Shown here: positions 5,080 to 45,501 of the stretch, piece by piece
Numbering within the stretch: the first letter of the stretch is position 1
Layout: the number at the start of each line of letters is the position of its first letter
The notes under the pieces: generated by a model
Database searches by the model: none
What the model saw: only the letters and a program-made list of their open reading frames with translations
What the model was told of the DNA's origin: nothing
Virus record (IMG/VR): IMGVR_UViG_3300019889_000237
Coordinates: 1 to 52,799 of that record
Source: a virus
Taxonomy: Duplodnaviria; Caudoviricetes
Length of the DNA stretch: 52,799 bases
Reading direction: 5' to 3' (one strand)
Position numbers and translations under genes: made by a program

Positions 5080-6327
5080 TCAGCTGGTGGCAGCGCGCGC
5101 GTCTGCGGCGAGCTGCAAGTAACCGACTCGGGCCTGTGGGTCGCGCACCTCGTCGGCGAGACGCTCGAAGTGCGCCGCCTTGGTGAGGTGCTCTTCCCGG
5201 TGGTCGGCCTTGGCCGTGTCTCCGGTGGTGCGGGTGAGAACGGGTCCACCCGGGGCCGGCGCGCTCATGGCCTTCGTCAGCTGACCTGCGAGGTCGCCGA
5301 CCTGTGCCTGGAGCGCCTTCACCAGCTCGGTGAGGTCATCGTTCGGTGCGGCGGAATCGCTGCCGCCTTCACCGCCCGTGGCCGCCTTCACGGCAGTCAC
5401 GGGCGGGGGCTCGGTGCTCGGCGCCTCGACGGCGGCCGGAGCGGGGGACGCGACGTCCGGCGCCACGGCCTTCTCGGTGTCCGGCTTGTCGGCCAGATCG
5501 ACGTGTGCCACAGCGGGCTCCTTCTTCTCGCGGCAGATGAACCACTCCAGGGCCTTGACCGCCTGAAGCAGCAATTCGATGTCACAGACCTCGGACGTCG
5601 CGCCCTCGGCCAAGCAGACGGCCTCGGACTGGATGAGGCCGGCGATGATGGCGATGGCCTGGTGCGCGTCGGCGACGTCGCCCGCCTGGTCGCCCTTGCG
5701 CACGGCGACGAGGTCGAAGCCCTTCACGGCCGCCTCGTACGCGGCGAGCGGCTCGCCGGCACGGTCGTCGACCTCGGGTGTATCAGCAGGGGCCTCGTGC
5801 AGCTCTTCCACCTTGACCAGGGAGCGGTCAAAGTCGACGGTCCCGGGCGTGACCGCCAACGGGCCGGGCTTGAGCGCCTTGGCCAGGGTGAGCGTGCAGG
5901 TCGGGTTCGCCGGCCGGTCGACCAAGCTCACTTCGACGATCTGGCCACCCACGATCCGGCCGTTGGGCGCGGACGCGTCCTTGACGACCTTCGGCGACCG
6001 GATGCCGATCGAGTAGCCCTTGAGGACGCCGCGCTCGACCTTGCGGGCCGAGTTCGCGTCCACGACCAGGCTCTTCAGGTCCCACCCGCCGTCCGGCAGG
6101 TGGGAGATCTCGGTGCCGACACCGGCCGCGATGCTGGAGTGCTGCTCGCGGACGTTCGCGCCCGTGGTGAACCAGGTCGGCATCGCGGTCTTGAGCCAGT
6201 CCGGGTCACAGATCTGCCGGTCGAGGTCGAGGTCCGGGCTGGTCGCCCGGCCGAACACCACCAGGTCGCCGTTGGCGTCCCGCTCGTGCTTGACGATCTC
6301 GGCGTAGACGGCGGTGGTGTCAGTCAT
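5080..6327 (-). CDS. Capsid maturation protease fused to scaffold-like C-terminus
   Basis: VREQH, LKGYSIG, EVSLVDRPANP prohead protease motifs; coiled-coil tail. Confidence 0.88.
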   Translation of the reverse strand: MTDTTAVYAEIVKHERDANGDLVVFGRATSPDLDLDRQICDPDWLKTAMPTWFTTGANVREQHSSIAAGVGTEISHLPDGGWDLKSLVVDANSARKVERGVLKGYSIGIRSPKVVKDASAPNGRIVGGQIVEVSLVDRPANPTCTLTLAKALKPGPLAVTPGTVDFDRSLVKVEELHEAPADTPEVDDRAGEPLAAYEAAVKGFDLVAVRKGDQAGDVADAHQAIAIIAGLIQSEAVCLAEGATSEVCDIELLLQAVKALEWFICREKKEPAVAHVDLADKPDTEKAVAPDVASPAPAAVEAPSTEPPPVTAVKAATGGEGGSDSAAPNDDLTELVKALQAQVGDLAGQLTKAMSAPAPGGPVLTRTTGDTAKADHREEHLTKAAHFERLADEVRDPQARVGYLQLAADARAATS

Positions 6328-9100
6328 CGTGACCCTTTTCCCCAGGCCAGCGCCCGTATCGGTCGTGGTACCACTGGGCGGCCATGCGCTTCGCGCGCTC
6401 GTTGCCGACGTGGTCCTTCAGGTGGTTGTAAAGGTCGGTCCACGACGTCCAGCGGGCCGCGCCCTCGCCGCGTAGCCAGTACTCCTTGAGCTGGTTGCGG
6501 TCGGCCTTCTTGGGCAGGTCGAGCACCGGCGTCAGGCTGCACCGGCAGTGCGGGTGCGCGGGCGGGAACGCGTCGCCGGACTCGAACGAGCTCGTCGTGG
6601 GGATCGCGCCCTGCCCGGCGTTGCCGGCACACGTCTTGCACACCCGCTGGTCGGGCGCGAGAAGCCAGAGCTTGCGGCCGATGGCGTTGCGCTCGTAGGT
6701 GGCCTGGGTGGCCGCCGACATCGCCCGGGCGGTCTCGGTGACCGCGACCGTCTCGGCCCACTGTGGGGCGTCCAGCACGCCGCGCAGGTCGGTCGCAAGC
6801 GACTGTGGAGACCGGCCGTCCTCGACGGCATCGGCCAGCACATCGGCCAGCTCAGCGAACCGAGAGGCGGCCACCGACAAGATGGTGACCCCGGCCGCGT
6901 CGAGCAGCATCTCCAGTCGCTCGGCCGCGGGGGACCGGGCGTCGTCGCCGATCGCGTCCAGGGCGTCGTGCTCGCCAGCGCGCCACGCTTCGGTAAGCGC
7001 GCTGGCGAGCACCGGCCGCAGTCGGCCTGCGAGCGGGGCGGCCCGTTCGAGCAACCAGCCGAGCGCGACCCGCGCGAGATCGCGCAAGCCCTTCTCGGCA
7101 TTCATGTGCTCGCGCCAGGCCGTGGCCAGCTCGTCACAGTCGACCGCACCGAGCGCGGCCTCGTTCAGCTGCCGCGCGACCCGCTCGGTGATCTGGTCCA
7201 GCTCGCCCCGCTCAGGGGCCGGGGCTTTTCCCAGGTCAGCACCGTATGTAACGCGGGCCGGGTCGATGTCGAATTGCACCAGGTCGGCCGGCTCGACGAT
7301 GTACTCGAGCTGGAACCGGCGCCCGGTCCGCCCCTTCGCCAGCCACTTGCGGTAGGCGGAGGCCTCAGCTGCCTTCTTCGCCCCACTCCCCCCGGTGGCG
7401 GAGGAGGCGGAACGGGCGGGAGCCGCGGGCTTCTTGCCGCCGCTCCCGCCCGGCGCGCCGCCGGGCTCCGCCTTCGCGTCCACCGCGCGTTCCTCGAGCT
7501 GGAGCGCAGCCTCGGCCCGCTCCTCGGCGCCCTCGATGAACGTGATCGTCGCGCCGTTGATGACCGCGGGCTTGTCCGCCTCGGGGAAGGTGAAGCGCGG
7601 CCGGCCGATCTCGTCGCGGCCCTCGTTGATGGTGAGCAGACCGGCCGCGACCTGCTCGGCGGTCTTGTCCTCTTCCTCACCCTCGCCCTCGTCGTCGAGG
7701 CCCAACCACTTGAACTCCAGCTCACGCGGCAGCTTCAGGTGCGCCCGGGAGATCTGGGTGATCAGCTCGGCCATCCACCTGAGCGCGGGCTTGCGGCCCT
7801 TGCGGTTGTTGAGCCGGTCCTGACCTTCGGCGTGCCCGTCGGAGCCCAGGCCCTTGGCCTCGGTGAAGCCGAGCTCGTGCACGGTCAAATCGAAGTGGGC
7901 GACGACGAGCTTGAGCAAGTGCATGTCGAACTCGGGCTTGTACTTCTCGGCCACGTTCGGCCCGGACTCCTCCGGCCGGAAGCCGGGCGGCAGCACCCGG
8001 TAGCGGAACCGGTTCGCCGTCTGGCCGCTGTAGTGGTCGTTGAGCTCGCGCTCGTACTCGGCCACCTGGCCCGGCGACCACTGGTGGGTGGACGTCTGCT
8101 CGTTGATCAACCAGCCTGCCGGCATGACACCGTCGGTGTACTCGGCGCGGAGCCAGTTGATCCGCTTGTGCCAGAGGTCGATGTCCATCAGCGACTGCTC
8201 GACCGGGCTCAGCCCGTACGGGGTGTGCGCCCGGACCTCGCGCCGGATGTAGATCAGCTGGTCGGCGGTGTAGGCGTCCGGGACCACGGTGCGGCCCTCG
8301 GTGTCGGAGGTGTCGGCGGTGAACTCGCCCCTCGGGAAACCGTGGATGATCTGCTGGTAGGCGGGCTCGGGCGGCATCGGCCGGCCGCCCCGGTGGTCGA
8401 GCAACGGCTTGATCGTGGTCGAGTCCAGGATCTCCAGCGAGTACAGGTCTCCGCCGAGGGTGTAGCGCGGGTAGATCGCGAGGGCGTCGAGGACGAGCTG
8501 TTCCTCGAGGAACTGGCAGATCCACTCGGCGAACGTGTAGCCGTTACCCGGGTCGGGGTCGAGCCAGAAGTCGGTGCACCGGTCGATGTCGGTGAGCATC
8601 GTGCCGCGAAGCTCGCGCTCGACGTCCAGGCGCCCGGCGTCGGGCTGGTCGCGCTGGGCGCGGTCGATGGCACGTCGGCTCAGGCCGAAGTCCCATTCGA
8701 GGCCCTGGATCTCGGACTTGCGGATGCGCAGGCAGTCGCGGATCAGCGGCAGGTTCGCGGCGTCGCGCAGCGTCTTCCACGGGACGAGGCGGCCGTGCCC
8801 GGTGCCGGGCAGGTTCCAGCTGACCGGGTACTCCCACAGACGCGGCTCGGCGCGGCCAGAGCTGCGCCGGGTCGGGTCCAGCGGCGCCGGCGTGAGCGGG
8901 ATGCCGGGCCCGAACGCATACGGGTACTGGTCACGGGGCAACGGCTGCGCGAGGGCGCCGGTCTCCTGCTGGCGGTTGAGCAGGCCCTGGACCTGTTCGG
9001 CGGTGTAGACCCGTCCGGACACGGTGGCCGGAGCGGTGGTGGCCGGTAGGGCCTTCTCGATCGCCTTGCTGGGGACGGGCTTACGACGGCGCCTGGCCAC
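6320..9100 (-). CDS. Portal protein fused to MuF-like (minor head) domain plus small C-terminal domain
   Basis: Portal motifs (YGLSPVEQ, TINEGRDEIG); MuF motifs (VAVTETARA, VCKTCAGN, PPAHPHCRC). Confidence 0.88.
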   Translation of the reverse strand: MARRRRKPVPSKAIEKALPATTAPATVSGRVYTAEQVQGLLNRQQETGALAQPLPRDQYPYAFGPGIPLTPAPLDPTRRSSGRAEPRLWEYPVSWNLPGTGHGRLVPWKTLRDAANLPLIRDCLRIRKSEIQGLEWDFGLSRRAIDRAQRDQPDAGRLDVERELRGTMLTDIDRCTDFWLDPDPGNGYTFAEWICQFLEEQLVLDALAIYPRYTLGGDLYSLEILDSTTIKPLLDHRGGRPMPPEPAYQQIIHGFPRGEFTADTSDTEGRTVVPDAYTADQLIYIRREVRAHTPYGLSPVEQSLMDIDLWHKRINWLRAEYTDGVMPAGWLINEQTSTHQWSPGQVAEYERELNDHYSGQTANRFRYRVLPPGFRPEESGPNVAEKYKPEFDMHLLKLVVAHFDLTVHELGFTEAKGLGSDGHAEGQDRLNNRKGRKPALRWMAELITQISRAHLKLPRELEFKWLGLDDEGEGEEEDKTAEQVAAGLLTINEGRDEIGRPRFTFPEADKPAVINGATITFIEGAEERAEAALQLEERAVDAKAEPGGAPGGSGGKKPAAPARSASSATGGSGAKKAAEASAYRKWLAKGRTGRRFQLEYIVEPADLVQFDIDPARVTYGADLGKAPAPERGELDQITERVARQLNEAALGAVDCDELATAWREHMNAEKGLRDLARVALGWLLERAAPLAGRLRPVLASALTEAWRAGEHDALDAIGDDARSPAAERLEMLLDAAGVTILSVAASRFAELADVLADAVEDGRSPQSLATDLRGVLDAPQWAETVAVTETARAMSAATQATYERNAIGRKLWLLAPDQRVCKTCAGNAGQGAIPTTSSFESGDAFPPAHPHCRCSLTPVLDLPKKADRNQLKEYWLRGEGAARWTSWTDLYNHLKDHVGNERAKRMAAQWYHDRYGRWPGEKGHDD

Positions 9101-19338: not shown

Positions 19339-20499
19339 ATGGCCCTCGTCCGCGCCGACCAGACGCCCTCGAACCCGGTCAAGGCCCCGACCGCCGACGT
19401 GCCCAACTCGATCTTTAGGGATCAGTGGAAGAGACCGCTCGTGGTAACTCCCAGCGGGTCAGTGGAGGCCTACACCCGGGCATCGACTATCGGGTCGGTC
19501 CTGGAGGACCAGAACGGGATCGGCATCTGGAAGATGCGCCAGGTCGCGTGGGCGCTCGGGCACTCCCGCCCGCTGCGACTGCGCGCCGCCTCGATCCCGG
19601 ACACCGCGAGTTCGGAGTCCAAGTCTCTGCTCAAGGAGATCACCAACGACGCGTTGGACTTCGCGGACTCCCGGGCGGCAGCCGACGTCGGCACCGCGCT
19701 GCACGCGCTCACCGAGCGGGTCGACCTCGGCCGGCCGATCCCGGACCTGGAGGACGACCAGGCCGCGATCGACGCCTACATCGAGGCGACCCGGGGCAAG
19801 TTCGTCTTCCACGGCACCGAACAGTTCGTGGTGTGCGACCAGTTCCAGGTCGCCGGCACGTTCGACCGGATCGCGGCCCCGCTCGGCGACATGACCACCC
19901 AGGACGGCACCCTGATCCCGGCCGGGTCCCGGCTGGTGTGGGACCTCAAGACGTCCGGCTCGTCCAAGTTCTTCGGGATCAAGTTCGCCGCCCAGCTGGC
20001 CGCCTACGCCAACGGCGTGCGCTACCGGGGCTGGAACACCATCGGCGACGACGTCGACCCGCGCACCCTGTCGCCGGCCGAGAAGCTCGCCGCCTCGCGC
20101 GGCGAGCGACTGGAGTGGCCGGACGGGATCGCCCCGCGCACCGACTGGGCGCTGATCCTGCACGTCCCCCAGGGCGGGCCGGAGCGCAAGGGCGACCCGC
20201 CCGCGCAGCTGTATTGGGTGGACCTGACCCGCGGCCTGGAACTACTGGCGCTGGCCACCCTGATCCAGGGCTGGCGGGCCCGCAAGGACCTGGTCGTGAA
20301 GGCCGACCCGCCGCGGGTGCCGATGGCCGAGGGCCTGTCGGGGGCCGGGCTCTCCTCGCTGATCGCCGCCGTGCCGGCCGGGCCGGACATGCGCGCACAG
20401 CTTCTCCGCCTGTTCGATCAGCACACATCCACCTGGACGGACCTGCACACACATGAGGCCAAGCGGCGCCTGAACGCGCCACGGCTGGGGCGGGCATGA
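19339..20499 (+). CDS. Cas4-like PD-(D/E)XK exonuclease
   Basis: YTRAST, GTALHALTE, EQFVV, AGTFDRI, WDLKT, QLAAYA motifs. Confidence 0.82.
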   Translation: MALVRADQTPSNPVKAPTADVPNSIFRDQWKRPLVVTPSGSVEAYTRASTIGSVLEDQNGIGIWKMRQVAWALGHSRPLRLRAASIPDTASSESKSLLKEITNDALDFADSRAAADVGTALHALTERVDLGRPIPDLEDDQAAIDAYIEATRGKFVFHGTEQFVVCDQFQVAGTFDRIAAPLGDMTTQDGTLIPAGSRLVWDLKTSGSSKFFGIKFAAQLAAYANGVRYRGWNTIGDDVDPRTLSPAEKLAASRGERLEWPDGIAPRTDWALILHVPQGGPERKGDPPAQLYWVDLTRGLELLALATLIQGWRARKDLVVKADPPRVPMAEGLSGAGLSSLIAAVPAGPDMRAQLLRLFDQHTSTWTDLHTHEAKRRLNAPRLGRA

Positions 20500-22256
20500 A
20501 CCGCTCCGTCGACCTGCGCTTCGGCGACTGCCTGGCCGTCCTGCGCGAGCTCTCCGACGAGTCCGTGCACGCGGTCATCTGCGACCCGCCTTACGGCCTG
20601 GCCGACGTGCGCCCCGAGCGGGTCGTCACCGCGCTGACCGCGTGGGCGAACGGCGACCGCGACCACGTCCCGGACGGCAAGGGATTCATGGGCCGGGAGT
20701 GGGACGCGTTCGTTCCCCCGCCCGCTGTGTGGGACGAGTGCTTGCGCGTGCTCAAGCCGGGCGGGCACCTGCTCGCGTTCGCCGGCTCCCGCACCGCCGA
20801 CCTGATGGGCCTGTCCGTGCGCATGGCCGGGTTCGAGATCCGGGACACGATCATGTGGGTCTACGGCTCGGGATTTCCGAAGGGGCAGAACGTCGGCAAG
20901 GCCGCCAAGGTCGCAGAGCTGGAGGGGTGGAACACCGCGCTCAAGCCGGCCCAGGAGCCGATCATCGTCGCCCGGAAGCCGCTCGCGGGCACGGTCGCGG
21001 CCAACGTACTAGCATGGGGCTGTGGCGCTATCAACATCAACGCAACCCGGGTCGGCCCGAACGGCGGCAGCCGCGAAAGCCTCGGCCGAGAAGCGGCGCC
21101 GCGAGGGTGTCGTGTTCATGCCGTGCGCGATGTGCGGCAAGGAGATGCGCCGCTGGCGTTCGCAGGTGCAGCGAGCGAAGTTGCCGATGACCTGCAGTCA
21201 GAAGTGCAGGGGCGACCAGCTGCGCGGGCAACGGAACCCGCGGTGGGGCGGCGGCGCCTGGACGGAGAGTCGGTCGGGCTACCGGAAGCTGGCAGTCCGC
21301 CACCTGTCGGCCAAGGACCTGTCGCTGATCCCGGAACCACATCCGCGCGAGGTGTTCGAGCACCGCATGGTGATGGCGAGGAAGGTCGGTCGGCCGCTCC
21401 TGCCGACGGAGATGGTCCATCACATCAACGGGGACAAGGCGGACAACCGTCCGGAGAACCTGCACTTGACGGACTGGGAGGGGCACTCCCGGGAGCATCG
21501 GCTGATCGAGCGCGAGCTGACGATGTTGCGCTGGCAGAACATGGTCCTGGCGACTGCACTTGCGGCACTGATGCAGCGTCCGGAGTAGCGCCCGCCGGCC
21601 GCTGGCCCGCGAACGTCGTCCTCGTCCACGTCGACACCTGCGAGGACGGGGGCGCGTGCGGGGACTGCCCGGTCGCCGAGCTGGACCGGCAGAGTGGGAT
21701 CACGAAGACCGGCGACAAGCCGTTCAACCGGAACACCGCGCTCGGCGTGATGAACGACGACGCGTGGACTGCGCAGCACCAGACCGCCCAGCGTCATCCC
21801 GGCGAGGGCGGCGCGTCCCGGTTCTTCCCGACCTTCCGCTACCAGGCCAAGGCTCCGGCCGCCGAGCGCCCGAAGATCGACGGCAAGGGCTGGCCCACCG
21901 TCAAGCCGCAGGGCCTTATGCGGTGGCTGGTCCGGCTCGTCACCCCGCCCGGCGGGCTGGTGCTGGACCCGTTCGCCGGGACCGGCTCGACACTGCAGGC
22001 CGCCCGCGATGAGGGGTTCGACGCGATCGGGATCGAGCGGGATGCGTTCGCGTACCAGCTCGCATGCCAGCGGCTCGGGCTGACCGAGCTCGTGCTCGTC
22101 GAGCCCGAGCCCGTCGACCCGATCCTGACCTCGATCAGCGCGGCGGCCACGTACGACGACCTGGTAGCGCTCTGGCGTGAACATCAGGACGGGTGGTCGG
22201 ACGTGCACAGCGCGGCGGCCAAGGACCGTCGAGCGGCGATCGATGTGGTGGCATGA
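20496..22256 (+). CDS. Amino (N6/N4) DNA methyltransferase, beta-class motif order, with long internal insert
   Basis: [52 protein letters not shown]. Confidence 0.9.
21022..21588 (+). CDS. HNH endonuclease nested in the +1 frame of the methyltransferase (start GTG 21022 or ATG 21118)
   Basis: CAMCGK...TCSQKC, NPRWGGG, EHRMVM..KVGRPL...[16 protein letters not shown]. Confidence 0.85.
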
Positions 22257-22624
22257 CCCGCCGTCCGGTCAAAGGCCTGGCCCCCCGGCTGGCCGTCGAG
22301 CCCGCCCCACGTCCGCCCGGCCCGACCGAGATCCTCGGCCCGGACGGGCGGGTGTGGCTGCGGCACGCCGACGGCCTCTACTACGACGAGGAGCAGACCG
22401 AGGTATTCAGTCAGGGCGCGTTGCGCGACCTGATCGCGCGGGCCGCCGAGCGGCTGGCGATCGCGAACGCGCGCACCCCGGACCCGGTGCTGAACGCGAT
22501 CGTGACCGCCCGGACCGTCGACGAGCTGCGCGACATCTGGCCGCGAACGACGACGCGCGAGCAGCGTGCCGCCATCCTCGGCCGCCGGGCCGCGCTCGAG
22601 CTACCACCGAAGGGGGACCGATGA
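22253..22624 (+). CDS. Hypothetical protein with shared C-terminal helical module
   Basis: ATGA overlap with MTase; DPVLNAIVTARTVDELRDIW. Confidence 0.65.
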   Translation: MTRRPVKGLAPRLAVEPAPRPPGPTEILGPDGRVWLRHADGLYYDEEQTEVFSQGALRDLIARAAERLAIANARTPDPVLNAIVTARTVDELRDIWPRTTTREQRAAILGRRAALELPPKGDR

Positions 22625-22923
22625 CCACCGCGACCCGGGCGCCGCAGGTGTGGCGCGGCTACGACGCGCTGGCGCAGGCCGACGAGCCGATCGGCAGCCA
22701 CTACTCGCCCAACGCGCTGCGCACCCTGCGCCGGCTCGCGCCGGCGTCGTCCACTGTCGCCGCGCTGGTCCGGACCGACGGCCGCCGAACCGTCAAGGTT
22801 CAGGCCACCGTGCGCCGGTTGTACCGCCTGGACCTCGTCCAGATCACCGGCGACGGCCGGTGGGAGCTGTCCGAGCACGGGCGCGAGCTGGTCGCGCTCA
22901 TTGACCGGGAGGGGATCTCGTGA
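22621..22923 (+). CDS. Putative winged-helix protein
   Basis: ATVRRLYRLDLV...GRWELSEHGRE. Confidence 0.55.
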   Translation: MTTATRAPQVWRGYDALAQADEPIGSHYSPNALRTLRRLAPASSTVAALVRTDGRRTVKVQATVRRLYRLDLVQITGDGRWELSEHGRELVALIDREGIS

Positions 22924-23375
22924 AGGTCTGCGTCGACTGCGAGGCGCTGCCGGCCGGTGAACGACCGACCAAGCCCCGGCCGACCGACGGCGCCCCGCGC
23001 CGGCCCCGTTGCGCCACCCACGCCCGGGCCGAGCGGAAGCGCGCCAAGGCCGCCCGGCACGCCACCTACGTGACCAAGACCTACGGCCTGAGCCCCGAGT
23101 TCCAGCGCGCGCTCTGGGAGTTCCAGGGCGGCGCGTGCCCGTGCGGCCGGCAGCCGAGCCGGTTCCCGGACACCGACCACGATCACCGGCTCGCCCGCGG
23201 GCACGACCACCCGGTCGAGCAGGCGTGTCCGGAGTGCGTGCGCGGGCTGTGCTGCCGGGCCTGCAACACCTACGTGCTCGGCCGCTACAGCGCCGCGCAG
23301 CTGCGCGCGCTGGCCCGCTATATCGAGAACCCGCCCGCCCAGGAACTGCTCATCGGAATGGACGTGTCGGCGTGA
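22920..23375 (+). CDS. Endonuclease VII-like protein
   Basis: TYGLS...QGGACPC...DHDH...VRGLCCRACN. Confidence 0.85.
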   Translation: MKVCVDCEALPAGERPTKPRPTDGAPRRPRCATHARAERKRAKAARHATYVTKTYGLSPEFQRALWEFQGGACPCGRQPSRFPDTDHDHRLARGHDHPVEQACPECVRGLCCRACNTYVLGRYSAAQLRALARYIENPPAQELLIGMDVSA

Positions 23376-42819: not shown

Positions 42820-45501
42820 CTACCTCCGTACCGGGGTGCCGGAGCTGAACTGGCCGATGGCGACCGGCACGCCGGAGCGCATCCGTCCACCTCGTCGCCC
42901 GCGGCCGGAGCCCACGCCGAGCACGGCGCCGCCCCCCGCCTTCGCGTGGTCCGCGGGATGGATGACCTCAACCAGGCCGATCCCGGCGACCAGCACCGCC
43001 GCGCCACCGGTCCGGACGTAGACCGTGGCCGACGTCCGGTCCTGGATCCCAGCGCCGGCGCCGGTCGTGCTCGCGCCGCCGGTCTTCGCGTGCACCAAGG
43101 CGGGCGTCAGATCGACGGAGCCGGAGCCGGCACCGCGCACGGTGGCGCCGCCGGTGCGGTCGTGCCGGACGGCAGGGACGTGCTCAGCGGTCCCTGATCC
43201 GGCCACTGACGCGCTCGCGCCGCCGACGCGGGTGTGGACTACCGCCGATGCGATCGTGTACCCGCCGGATCCGGCCGTCGTCGTCGTCGCGCCACCGGTG
43301 CGGGGGTAGACGTCCGGGTGCTGGGATTCTCGTGCGCCGACCCCGGCGCCCACGCCCACCGCGCCGCCGCCCTTGCTGTACTCGACACCGCCGCCGGTCT
43401 GGCGCAGGCCGGAGCTCGCGCTGCGAGCTGCGCCGCCGCCGGTCCGGACGTAGACGGTGGCCGAGGTGACGCTCTGCGCGCCCGACCCGGCGGTGACACG
43501 GGCGGCGCCGCCGGTCTTCTCGTGTCGGGCAGCCGAGACGAGCTCGACGGCACCGGACCCGGCAGCACCGGCAGCGGCACCGCCGAACTCGGCGTGGATG
43601 GTAGCGGGTGTGCGCACCTTCGCGCCGGCGCTCGCACCGCGCGCGGCGGCGCCGCCGGTGCGGACGTAGGTCGTGGCCGAGGTGACAGCCTTCGCTCCGG
43701 ATCCTGCGCTGGTGCGGGCCGCTCCGCCGGTCCTGGCGTACACGGCAGGCACCGAGACGGTCTTCGCGCCCGATCCTGCGCTGACGCGGACTGCGCCGCC
43801 GGTCTTGCTGTAGGTCGTGGGGTTCGTGACCGTCTTCGCGCCAGACCCCGCACAGCGCGCCGCTGCGCCACCGGTCTTGTCGTGGGTCGTGCCGGACGGG
43901 TCGTCGTCGGCCGGTTCGAGGACCTCCAGGAACGAGATCTTGGCGATGCCCTCGCCGGACGACCCGGACGCGATCGTGGTCTTGTGGTACGCCCCGCACT
44001 TGTAGTACCAGCCCGACTGGTCGGTGAAGTCCGAGATCGGCCAGTCGTACTGCGGCGAGGCGAGCGGCGCCAGGTCACTGACCTCGCCCGCGACGCCCCA
44101 GACCTTGAGCCGATCGTCCTCGATCCGGATCCGGAACGTGAGCCGCGTGCTGGTCGTGATGCCCGTGATGAGGTTCGCCAGCCCGGGGCCGTTCTTGAAG
44201 ATCCGTACACGCGGCGTGACCGGGCTACCGCCCGACGTCCACTCGGCCGACAGGATCAGCGGAATGGGGCTGTCGCCCGCGCCGTGGATCTGGGAGATGA
44301 TCAGTTCCTTGCGCGGGTTCGAGCCGCCGGTGATGCTCGTCGGATCCGCACTGGTGGTGATGGTCATCTGCCAGCGACCGGACCCGTTCGGGTCCATCGC
44401 CGCGTTGGCGTAGCCGCTCTTGTAGTGCTGGCGCAGCTCCATGCGGACGGCGCCGGACGCGCCCGAGGTGGTGAACCCGTCGACCGGCGCGACGCAGTTC
44501 ACGAACCCGTCGTCATCGACGAAGAACCCGGCGGACTCGAAGCTGTCGAGCGCGGGCTGGTTGATCTGCTCGGCGTCGCCGTCGCCCGAGTCCTCCGGCG
44601 TGGTCAGGTGCCAGTACGACAGGTCGAGGACATCGCTGGGTAGCTGGTCCGGCGGGACGTTGATGACCGACTTCGCTCCGGAGCCTGCGCTGGTGCGGGC
44701 CGCTCCGCCGGTCTTCGGGTTCGTCTTGCCGATCGCCTTCGCGCCCGACCCGGCTCCGGTGCGCACGGCGCCGCCGGCCTTGTCGACGAAGTTGGCCGGC
44801 AGGACCGACTTCGAGCCCGACCCGGCGCTGGATCGTGCCGCCCCGCCTGCCTTCGAGTAGGTCGTGCCGGAGGGCACGGGGAGCAGGGCGACGAGATGCG
44901 CCGTCTTCGTGAAGCTCTGCGTCGTCGTGGTCGTGACCGACCCCGACGCACCGGCCACTGCTTGAGCCTTGCGAGCCGCGTGCACCAGCCGCGAGGCGGG
45001 CGCCCCGGCCGGGGCCGACGCGGTGAACGTGCTCGGCGTCGTCCAGGTGGTGACGTCGTACGTGCCCGCCAGCCACACGAGCAGCCGGTCCGCCCCGGTC
45101 GTGGTGACCGACACGGCCGGCGACGCGGTGACGCTCGTGCCGCCGCTGGTCGCACCGCTGAAGACATCGATCGGGTCTCCGGAGGTGACGCAGCCACGGA
45201 ACGCCATGGCGAACCCGGTCCGCCACACCGACCCCGTCCAGGTGAACGAGTACGTACCGCTGTCCGCGCCGGTGGCCCGCTTCCAGAACACGTAGGTGTC
45301 GTGGTCCTGGCTGCCGGTCGCGGCCTGATGCGATTTCTCGATGAACCCGGACGGCGGGGTGACCGCCGCCGTGTTCTCCTTGTAGACGATCACCAGGATG
45401 ACGTCGTTGGCCTGTACCCCGGCTGGCACGGCGACCGCCGCGCTGGCGCCGCTGGCCTCGGTGAGGTAGGTGCCTGCGGCGACGAACGTGGGTACCGCCA
45501 C
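42820..45501 (-). CDS. Tail fibre-like protein with embedded PL7 (alginate lyase-like) domain
   Basis: Same repeats; LDLSYWHLTTP, RMELRQ, QIH, YYKCGAY. Confidence 0.82.
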   Translation of the reverse strand: MAVPTFVAAGTYLTEASGASAAVAVPAGVQANDVILVIVYKENTAAVTPPSGFIEKSHQAATGSQDHDTYVFWKRATGADSGTYSFTWTGSVWRTGFAMAFRGCVTSGDPIDVFSGATSGGTSVTASPAVSVTTTGADRLLVWLAGTYDVTTWTTPSTFTASAPAGAPASRLVHAARKAQAVAGASGSVTTTTTQSFTKTAHLVALLPVPSGTTYSKAGGAARSSAGSGSKSVLPANFVDKAGGAVRTGAGSGAKAIGKTNPKTGGAARTSAGSGAKSVINVPPDQLPSDVLDLSYWHLTTPEDSGDGDAEQINQPALDSFESAGFFVDDDGFVNCVAPVDGFTTSGASGAVRMELRQHYKSGYANAAMDPNGSGRWQMTITTSADPTSITGGSNPRKELIISQIHGAGDSPIPLILSAEWTSGGSPVTPRVRIFKNGPGLANLITGITTSTRLTFRIRIEDDRLKVWGVAGEVSDLAPLASPQYDWPISDFTDQSGWYYKCGAYHKTTIASGSSGEGIAKISFLEVLEPADDDPSGTTHDKTGGAAARCAGSGAKTVTNPTTYSKTGGAVRVSAGSGAKTVSVPAVYARTGGAARTSAGSGAKAVTSATTYVRTGGAAARGASAGAKVRTPATIHAEFGGAAAGAAGSGAVELVSAARHEKTGGAARVTAGSGAQSVTSATVYVRTGGGAARSASSGLRQTGGGVEYSKGGGAVGVGAGVGARESQHPDVYPRTGGATTTTAGSGGYTIASAVVHTRVGGASASVAGSGTAEHVPAVRHDRTGGATVRGAGSGSVDLTPALVHAKTGGASTTGAGAGIQDRTSATVYVRTGGAAVLVAGIGLVEVIHPADHAKAGGGAVLGVGSGRGRRGGRMRSGVPVAIGQFSSGTPVRR

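Follow-up and report, generated by a model that had tools for sequence, protein, structure and literature searches.

A DNA methyltransferase (MTase) gene in a soil phage genome contains a complete HNH endonuclease gene in a second reading frame, and the MTase frame stays open across it. The stretch analysed is IMG/VR virus record IMGVR_UViG_3300019889_000237, positions 1 to 52,799 (52,799 nucleotides, hereafter the window). We consider it likely that an HNH homing endonuclease gene is dual-coded in a variable loop of the MTase, where it is read through unspliced, its host frame is kept free of stop codons by selection and the element spreads by homing. The case is built on the anatomy of the locus, on the frame in which the insert is conserved, and on relatives of lower G+C content (GC) in which an open host frame is very hard to obtain by chance.

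An HNH gene nested in an open methyltransferase frame

The MTase gene (20496..22256, + strand) is one uninterrupted open reading frame (ORF) of 586 codons, giving 586 aa with the insert included. It encodes a beta-class N6/N4 DNA methyltransferase: the ORF matches Pfam N6_N4_Mtase (PF01555) at 2e-24 (87.2 bits, cut-off 26.7), a profile of 50 MTase homologues matches CcrM 6PBD (1.8e-33) and also DpnA and M.RsrI, and motif IV (DPPY) lies upstream of motif I (FxGxG), which is the beta-class order. The N-terminal part (20496..21056, +) carries the catalytic DPPY (D30-Y33; nt 20583-20594, +). The C-terminal part (21597..22256, +) opens with GRWPANV, followed by the S-adenosylmethionine (AdoMet)-binding motif DPFAGTGST (nt 21966-21992, +), in which DPFAGTG corresponds to residues 491-497. 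Residues D30, P31, P32 and Y33 are invariant in the 50 homologues, as are R369, N373, T468-P471 and G497 of the C-terminal part.

Conservation of the enzyme extends beyond these motifs. The window MTase keeps 83 of the 85 columns conserved at ≥90% in the 50 homologues (32/32 invariant and 51/53 nearly invariant columns). Compared with the homologous alleles L010 and L036, the ratio of non-synonymous to synonymous substitution (omega) is 0.36-0.38 for the N-terminal part and 0.50-0.54 for the C-terminal part, and these flank values are equal for invaded-invaded and invaded-empty pairs. An AlphaFold2 model made with the 50-sequence alignment has predicted local distance difference test scores (pLDDT) mostly of 80-98 over residues 1-185 and of 83-97 over residues 450-530. 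The gene appears to be an orphan MTase encoding an otherwise intact enzyme, and it looks functional.

The inserted element spans about 540 nt (21057..21596, +) and lies between the MTase motif NIxxxR, ending at nt 21053, and GRWPANV, starting at nt 21597. In the host frame it reads as a non-conserved, stop-free peptide of 180 codons; the full host-frame span between the two motifs is 181 codons with 0 stops. Its boundaries are uncertain by approximately 20 nt because a short native linker occupies the same place. That linker is 181 aa long in the window versus 8 aa in L036 and 3 aa in phage Dulcie, where the junction in gp59 reads ...NIDACRIG-TAQ-GRWP. L036 is the closest insert-free allele found, and in the N-terminal part this empty allele is nearer to the window (73% aa identity, synonymous divergence (dS) 0.59) than the invaded allele L010 is (65%, dS 0.87), in a comparison of three taxa only. 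Among 72 IMG/VR loci, 62 of them measurable, a regular-expression measure puts the linker at this site mostly at 31-51 aa. The short and variable linkers of homologous phage MTases indicate that the site is a naturally variable loop and that the segment is an insert.

The insertion site lies between motif VIII and motif X, a region that in a beta-class enzyme is the target-recognition region. The host-frame peptide, with its high content of G, A, P and R, has a model pLDDT <50 over residues 186-372. Around the insert we found only short chance repeats of 9-18 nt and no target-site duplication. A further MTase homologue, L065 (2190-3491), has a 130-aa segment at the same site without an alternative-frame ORF of ≥100 codons; this segment may represent a decayed element, or a domain encoded in the MTase frame.

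The HNH ORF (21022..21588, +) encodes 188 aa if started at GTG 21022 and 156 aa if started at ATG 21118. It is in the +1 frame relative to the MTase (21022-20496 = 526 = 3x175+1) and matches Pfam HNH_3 at 3.8e-9, or 2.3e-9 when started at ATG 21118. Its N-terminal zinc ribbon (CAMC ... CSQKC, of the form CxxC...CxxxC; 21124..21207, +) contains four cysteines (C38, C41, C61 and C65 in alignment A5) that are invariant in 7/7 members of the HNH lineage described below. The catalytic core (21361..21468, +) starts EHR and is covered by HNH_3 over residues 82-117 of the 156-aa form; core residues H82, H102, N110 and N114 are invariant in 18 relatives. The ORF closes with TAG (21586..21588, +) at the very 3' end of the insert, leaving 8 nt to the host GRWP codons. 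The same 3' layout recurs in L010 (TAG plus 5 nt), L084 (TAG overlapping the host G-R codons) and L101. The window genome holds a single copy of the HNH. Its AlphaFold2 model has a pLDDT of 88.9; a Foldseek search of the model against the PDB gave nothing at E≤0.001, the best match being a weak one to the homing endonuclease I-HmuI (1U3E; E 0.39, probability 0.77). The nuclease is predicted to be active and site-specific.

Intron and intein signatures

An Rfam search of 20400-22400 at E≤1 returned no intron family, only a chance miRNA-like match (E 0.96) outside the insert, and six related loci returned nothing at E≤0.1. Folding of 21040-21620 gave a z-score of -0.07 relative to shuffled sequences, so that nothing points to a structured RNA. 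The part of the insert not taken up by the HNH ORF is at most 61 nt on the 5' side (with the ATG 21118 start; none with GTG 21022) and 8 nt on the 3' side. A group I intron with a homing endonuclease ORF is improbable, there being no covariance-model core at Rfam E≤1 and no room for one outside the ORF.

Pfam found only N6_N4_Mtase in the full host-frame protein, without a Hint or intein domain. The insert, read in that frame, starts GPNGGS and ends ...APA|GRWP; a terminal HN is missing, and the +1 position is not C, S or T. An intein was rejected as well: the nuclease is in a different frame, a Hint domain is missing and the junction residues are unfit.

An initial annotation of this locus, made from the letters alone, had described a zinc-finger and HNH ORF set in the +1 frame exactly between two MTase motifs, an MTase frame without stops across about 180 low-complexity codons, and a lack of intein ends. 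Each element of that description held: the coordinates, the HNH_3 match and the zinc ribbon agree with the first, the 181 stop-free codons with the second, and the junction residues and Pfam result with the third.

Selection on the two reading frames

Purifying selection on the insert acts in the HNH frame only. The window and L010 share 69% nt identity over the insert. In the HNH frame omega is 0.38, with 63% aa identity, versus an omega of 1.4-1.6 and 41% aa identity for the host frame across the same sequence. This contrast indicates that the host-frame peptide is unconserved as a protein and is merely kept open.

Scans for the HNH in IMG/VR, GTDB genomes and metagenomes yielded six further distinct members of its lineage, with 39-66% aa identity (L010, L116, L117, L119, L120 and L121/L122). 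All 7 distinct members occupy the same MTase site, carry the HNH in +1 and have an open host frame, over a GC range of 0.45-0.71; the length of the insert preserves the host-frame register in 7/7. We asked how often the host frame would be free of stops by synonymous permutation of the HNH, over 176 codons per member. The probability of 0 stops was 0.071 for the window, 0.012 for L010, 0.19 for L116, 0.079 for L117 and 0.11 for L119. It fell to 0.0005 for L120 (GC 0.56; 5.1 stops expected, 0 observed) and 0.0001 for L121 (GC 0.46; 6.3 stops expected, 0 observed). The members share ancestry, so these P values are non-independent; the lower-GC members alone show that host-frame stop avoidance is selected. 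Free-standing relatives of the HNH (GC 0.29-0.46) have 13-24 stops in the equivalent frame in 6/6 cases.

Start codon and expression signals

Within host coding sequence, 12 codons ahead of the insert, the HNH frame becomes open; just upstream it is closed by an in-frame TAG (21010-21012). Upstream of 21118, 7/7 lineage members conserve a basic N-terminal segment in the HNH frame, with A23, K27 and R28 invariant, which implies that the segment is translated. GTG 21022 is favoured as the start because it is the only canonical start codon between this TAG and the conserved segment. It lies 35 nt upstream of the insert and is built from the host codons for Cys176 and Gly177. Column 176 is Thr in 44/50 MTases and Cys, Ser or Val in the lineage (Cys in 5/7). 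GTG 21022 is most likely the HNH start, and otherwise GTG 21112 or ATG 21118. A Shine-Dalgarno-like GAGGG (21103..21107, +) precedes GTG 21112 by 4 nt and ATG 21118 by 10 nt; its role as a signal is uncertain because it coincides with conserved R-E-G codons of the HNH.

Expression signals are plainer in lower-GC members. Within the window's lineage, L121 has TTGACA-17-TATAAT (12/12 matches to consensus), then AAGGAGG, then ATG, and L120 has TTGACA-17-CATAAT (11/12) with an ATG 7 nt past the -10 hexamer, a leaderless-like layout. The -35 hexamer TTGACA of both is formed by the host's conserved N-I-D codons. Members of other lineages are similarly equipped, L084 with a promoter of 11/12 plus AAAGGAG and L101 with one of 12/12 plus AGGAGG. 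Promoters and ribosome-binding sites of their own suggest that these are autonomous gene cassettes and argue against a frameshift fusion.

Hidden HNH genes at other sites of the same methyltransferase family

Among the best 80 of 128 MTase loci from IMG/VR, we found five distinct alleles with a hidden HNH and an open host frame, namely L044 (on the same contig as L010), L073, L084/L085, L101 and L109; most of the alleles in these 80 lack any HNH. Taken with phage genes from GenBank, out-of-frame HNHs with an open host frame occur at four sites beyond the window's, five in total, over a GC range of 0.29-0.72, and the nucleases belong to at least two Pfam HNH families. The site after GSGFPKS is used in HanShotFirst gp60 (+1 frame, PF01844 / HNH_5 type, P 0.0002). 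The site inside ALKP|xxEP holds HNHs of the ShiLan type, after the 'ShiLan domain', a term coined by Gosselin et al. 2023 (Genes, PMC9957025); it is occupied in Bipolar, MISSy and Mantra (P 0.007-0.023) and in L109. L101 has its insertion after FFYCAKxSxxER. The window's own site is also used by a second HNH lineage, present in L084/L085 in the +2 frame. Synonymous permutation is a conservative null for host frames that begin at position 2 of the HNH codons, since stops then depend mostly on the amino-acid sequence; the three such cases gave P values of 0.24 (L084), 0.17 (L101) and 0.057 (L109), even though the other alternative frame has 6-17 stops.

The fifth site, after GRFPANI, is seen in L073 (2462-4072), on a phage contig of GC 0.29, with a 199-codon HNH in the +1 frame that bears a NUMOD3 motif. 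Its host frame has 0 stops versus 14 expected, a state reached by 0/20000 permutations, and the other alternative frame has 24 stops; the contig breaks off before the C-terminal MTase part, and the host frame is open up to that end.

Some alleles of the family are more heavily modified. The MTase frame of L121 (30-3113; also L122) is open for 1028 codons at GC 0.45 and apparently holds three insertions: an apparent intein after ...QWIYG (starting CLSEDTEIL and ending ...ITGN|SGFPKS, judged from sequence only), the hidden HNH at the window's site, and, following FFYVAKASKAERNKGLDSTLTVKYN, a segment similar to the 5' end of the HNH cassette in L101. Mycobacterium phage Mantra gp64 (L007, 713-3037) combines its ShiLan-type HNH with an in-frame single LAGLIDADG domain (...FAYWLAGLIDGEGCF...) that lacks clear intein ends; section 1.2 of Arsenault, Gosselin and Gogarten (Genes 2025, PMC11855218) refers to this lone LAGLIDADG too. 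In Mycobacterium phage EleanorGeorge (L008, 1474-3131) a same-family MTase, annotated as the two methylase genes gp68 and gp69, is broken near its C-terminal third. A short insertion there, approximately 150 nt long, shifts the frame and brings in a stop, and we saw no nuclease ORF at that place. Every GenBank record we inspected for an open-frame allele labels the whole ORF 'DNA methylase'.

Weighing the explanations

On the reading we favour, a homing endonuclease gene of the free-standing HNH type would have invaded the variable loop of the MTase between NIxxxR and GRWP. The ribosome would read through the insert in the MTase frame, producing a disordered loop of about 180 residues, and the HNH would be translated separately in the +1 frame. 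Selection would remove host-frame stops, so that the host gene would be spared inactivation. The nuclease would presumably cut insert-free alleles during co-infection, and recombinational repair would copy the element in. The initial annotation had likewise suggested a dual-coding homing endonuclease that spares its host gene without splicing. Computation supports that proposal through stop avoidance across the lineage (7/7 open; P 0.0005 for L120 and 0.0001 for L121), selection in the HNH frame and intact MTase motifs, and the linker of 181 aa versus 8 (L036) and 3 (Dulcie) defines the insert.

Several points count against this reading. The window's open host frame, taken alone, is compatible with chance. 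In 33 reference genes of this phage, the frame starting at HNH codon position 3 (that used by the MTase) has 109 stops in 11,434 codons, and windows of the phage's own genes are stop-free in 2611/6622 cases at 150 codons, 2050/5958 at 180 and 1894/5764 at 190, that is, 33-39% of the time; synonymous-codon randomisation of the window HNH gave a probability of 0 stops of 0.064-0.17. The window MTase departs from the family consensus at D25H and D182N, and that it stays active while carrying a loop of 180 residues in its target-recognition region is a prediction. That the insert is not spliced is deduced from missing known signatures only, and atypical actinophage introns are known; those of BAKA and LittleE are still detected by RNAweasel (PMC11855218, section 3.1). 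Among the sequencing runs listed for this sequence, none was an RNA run. No promoter or terminator was found in 20300-22400, by a sigma-70-based scan that is ill-suited to high-GC hosts. The HNH start is unsettled, as GTG 21022 lacks a good Shine-Dalgarno sequence at normal spacing. An open frame is also frequent but not obligatory in this family: in L077 (2483-4631) and L081 (2411-4365) a free-standing nuclease gene divides the MTase into two ORFs, its product being a 241-aa multi-zinc-finger DUF559/Vsr-like protein in L077 and a 200-aa PF01844 HNH in L081. Both genes sit at sites that hold hidden HNHs in other alleles, and the C-terminal MTase pieces have their own starts.

Some of these points would suit a cryptic self-splicing intron, group I-derived or of unknown type, that carries the HNH ORF, in which case the host frame would be open incidentally. 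HNH-bearing group I introns are common in phages, cluster J mycobacteriophages have atypical splicing introns (as described in PMC11855218, section 3.1), and the window's own frame is statistically ordinary. We regard such an intron as improbable. No Rfam match appeared in the window (E≤1) or in six related loci (E≤0.1), the fold z-score is -0.07, and at most 61 nt (5') and 8 nt (3') outside the ORF are left for a catalytic core. An intron would have no need of stop avoidance, yet this is strong (0.0005 in L120, 0.0001 in L121, 0/20000 in L073), and the insert length keeps the host-frame register in 7/7 members. We give equally little credence to chance plus decay, in which the HNH entered a dispensable MTase that is now dead or dying and the frame is open through 70% GC. 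With 32/32 invariant and 51/53 nearly invariant columns kept and a flank omega of 0.36-0.54, the window gene does not look like a decaying one, and 7/7 lineage members are open, down to a GC of 0.45 where 5-6 stops are expected. This account does draw on the probability of 0.06-0.17 for the window's open frame, on the dispensability of MTases of this family, which are sometimes broken or split (EleanorGeorge, L077, L081), and on the absence of the gene from close ShiLan relatives (PMC11855218, section 4.1).

The initial annotation had also offered a compact MTase-nuclease pair or a frameshift fusion. The fusion would join the N-terminal MTase part to the HNH by programmed +1 frameshift; the pair would be restriction-modification-like or DNA-targeting and would benefit the phage. 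Both fared poorly, and we consider either one very improbable. The opening of the HNH frame 12 codons before the insert and the likely GTG 21022 within the host part would fit a fusion, and co-option of a hidden HNH is raised as speculation in PMC11855218 (section 4.2). A fusion is opposed by the TAG at 21010-21012, which closes the HNH frame upstream, by the lack of any slippery motif seen in the sequence, and by the lower-GC relatives with their own promoter, Shine-Dalgarno sequence or leaderless ATG. As for a pair, HNH-bearing open-frame alleles number five in the best 80 of 128 loci, and the nucleases use 5 sites and come from at least two Pfam HNH families. Such a sporadic distribution, with most alleles empty, is the pattern of a selfish element and not of a fixed partner.

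The phage genome and its setting

The soil phage genome (1..52,799) is a complete IMG/VR record (CheckV 100%) with a GC of approximately 70%. Besides the MTase it encodes a tail tube protein, a portal-MuF protein, a Prim-Pol/helicase and endonuclease VII. The portal protein is a 926-aa fusion to a Mu F-like domain (6320-9100, - strand), and another protein, of 893 aa (42820-45501, -), contains an alginate lyase domain (Pfam 3e-17) and is probably a tail-associated depolymerase. The endonuclease VII gene (22920-23375; Pfam 2.7e-10) lies two genes downstream of the MTase. In cluster A mycobacteriophages endonuclease VII is directly beside the homologous methylase, so the neighbourhood is partly conserved.

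A megablast search of window positions 1-25000 against GenBank phages gave no match, indicating that there is no close cultured relative. One contig of 18,227 bp (L014; NZ_DATHIT010000398.1), binned into a metagenome-assembled genome of Pseudonocardia sp., encodes an HNH protein 99% identical to the window's, with both insert junctions and the host-frame loop identical. This near-identical contig is the sole hint of the host genus, through metagenomic binning, and the phage host is possibly Pseudonocardia. Contigs of four soil runs were also compared at 85% likeness, and were not used as evidence: two possible source runs carry the identical invaded allele, and the other two have only divergent insert-less MTase pieces with other letters in between.

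Implications

Homing endonuclease genes are thought to persist in essential or useful genes inside self-splicing introns or inteins. The arrangement described here would be a third route, in which the element remains in the mRNA and in the protein and never adds a stop codon. This principle appeared in print in 2025, based on two mycobacteriophage cases, in an account whose sections drawn on here give neither statistics nor expression signals (PMC11855218). To this our analysis adds a quantitative stop-avoidance test, frame-specific selection, split-gene counter-examples and a probable start codon built from host-gene codons, and it shows the arrangement to be widespread in uncultured phages, at five sites of one MTase family and over a GC range of 0.29-0.72. 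The consensus promoters and ribosome-binding sites of some cassettes answer part of the published question of how hidden HNHs are expressed. A practical consequence is that gene callers and annotators systematically overlook hidden nucleases.

A wider generalisation is possible, and we offer it tentatively: hidden HNH cassettes may form a broad homing class, independent of introns and inteins, that persists by 'translational transparency', in the sense of selection against stops in the host frame, and takes its signals partly from host codons, such as the N-I-D codons behind the -35 hexamer of L120 and L121 and, in the window, the Cys-Gly codons of the probable GTG start, a variant associated with invaded alleles. 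If true, expression would be possible solely at one site, and the site specificity of the element would be coupled to the expression of its own gene. The window itself is an ordinary case once the kind is known.

Comparison with known systems

The closest known system is the ShiLan domain, in which a zinc-finger HNH is coded out of frame within a methylase whose own frame is left free of stops; the element shows neither intein nor intron signatures (Arsenault, Gosselin and Gogarten; PMC11855218). The same paper proposes that the element is retained in the protein as a loop, gives Pacc40 as a second case and describes close ShiLan relatives without the MTase gene (section 4.1). The window shares with it the MTase family (approximately 47-49% aa identity to MTases of cluster A, E and F phages, with the same motifs), a homologous zinc-ribbon HNH_3 (39% identity, E 4e-22 versus the Bipolar element), an open host frame without intein or intron signature, an HNH stop at the extreme 3' end and a host-frame peptide modelled as disordered. 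The differences lie in the site (between NIxxxR and GRWP in the window versus inside ALKP|xxEP, about 30 residues upstream, in ShiLan), the frame offset (+1 versus +2), the number of zinc fingers (one zinc ribbon versus two) and the start, which is likely in the host part in the window and is a GTG 18 bp into the insert in ShiLan. The window also comes from an uncultured soil phage of 70% GC, and the 5' end of its insert shows no ShiLan-like similarity to downstream host sequence. Assignment to the ShiLan domain in the strict sense was rejected, since site, frame and zinc-ribbon number differ.

The cluster A1 phages HanShotFirst (gp60) and Applejack resemble the window in having an HNH nested in +1 of a same-family MTase whose frame is open, and differ in that the HNH follows GSGFPKS and is of family PF01844 / HNH_5. 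The out-of-frame HNH of Applejack (gp54/gp55) is noted in a 2025 genome announcement (PMC12613952). HNHs of group I introns of the I-HmuI type share an HNH with a DNA-binding extension (the weak structural match noted above) and presumed homing into a conserved site, whereas in the window no intron RNA was detected by the searches above and the host frame reads through the element. The gene-splitting free-standing endonucleases of L077 and L081 are alike in placing a nuclease gene in a conserved gene with no intron or intein, an arrangement reportedly called 'fractured genes' by Dassa et al. 2009; in those alleles the host frame is broken and two polypeptides make up the MTase, whereas the window keeps one continuous ORF. 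Inteins are similar in their in-register insertion into a conserved gene with an uninterrupted host ORF, and one apparent intein occurs in the same MTase family (L121). In the window, by contrast, the nuclease is in another frame, with no Hint domain, no terminal HN and no +1 nucleophile. Out-of-frame and antisense homing endonucleases inside inteins are described in a 2025 preprint (10.1101/2025.01.02.630785).

The window's site is absent from the ShiLan account of PMC11855218 as far as examined, and the repository or supplements of that paper may list it. The arrangement was already published, and the window is a further case of it, at a new site and in a new sub-lineage of a kind that is not itself new.

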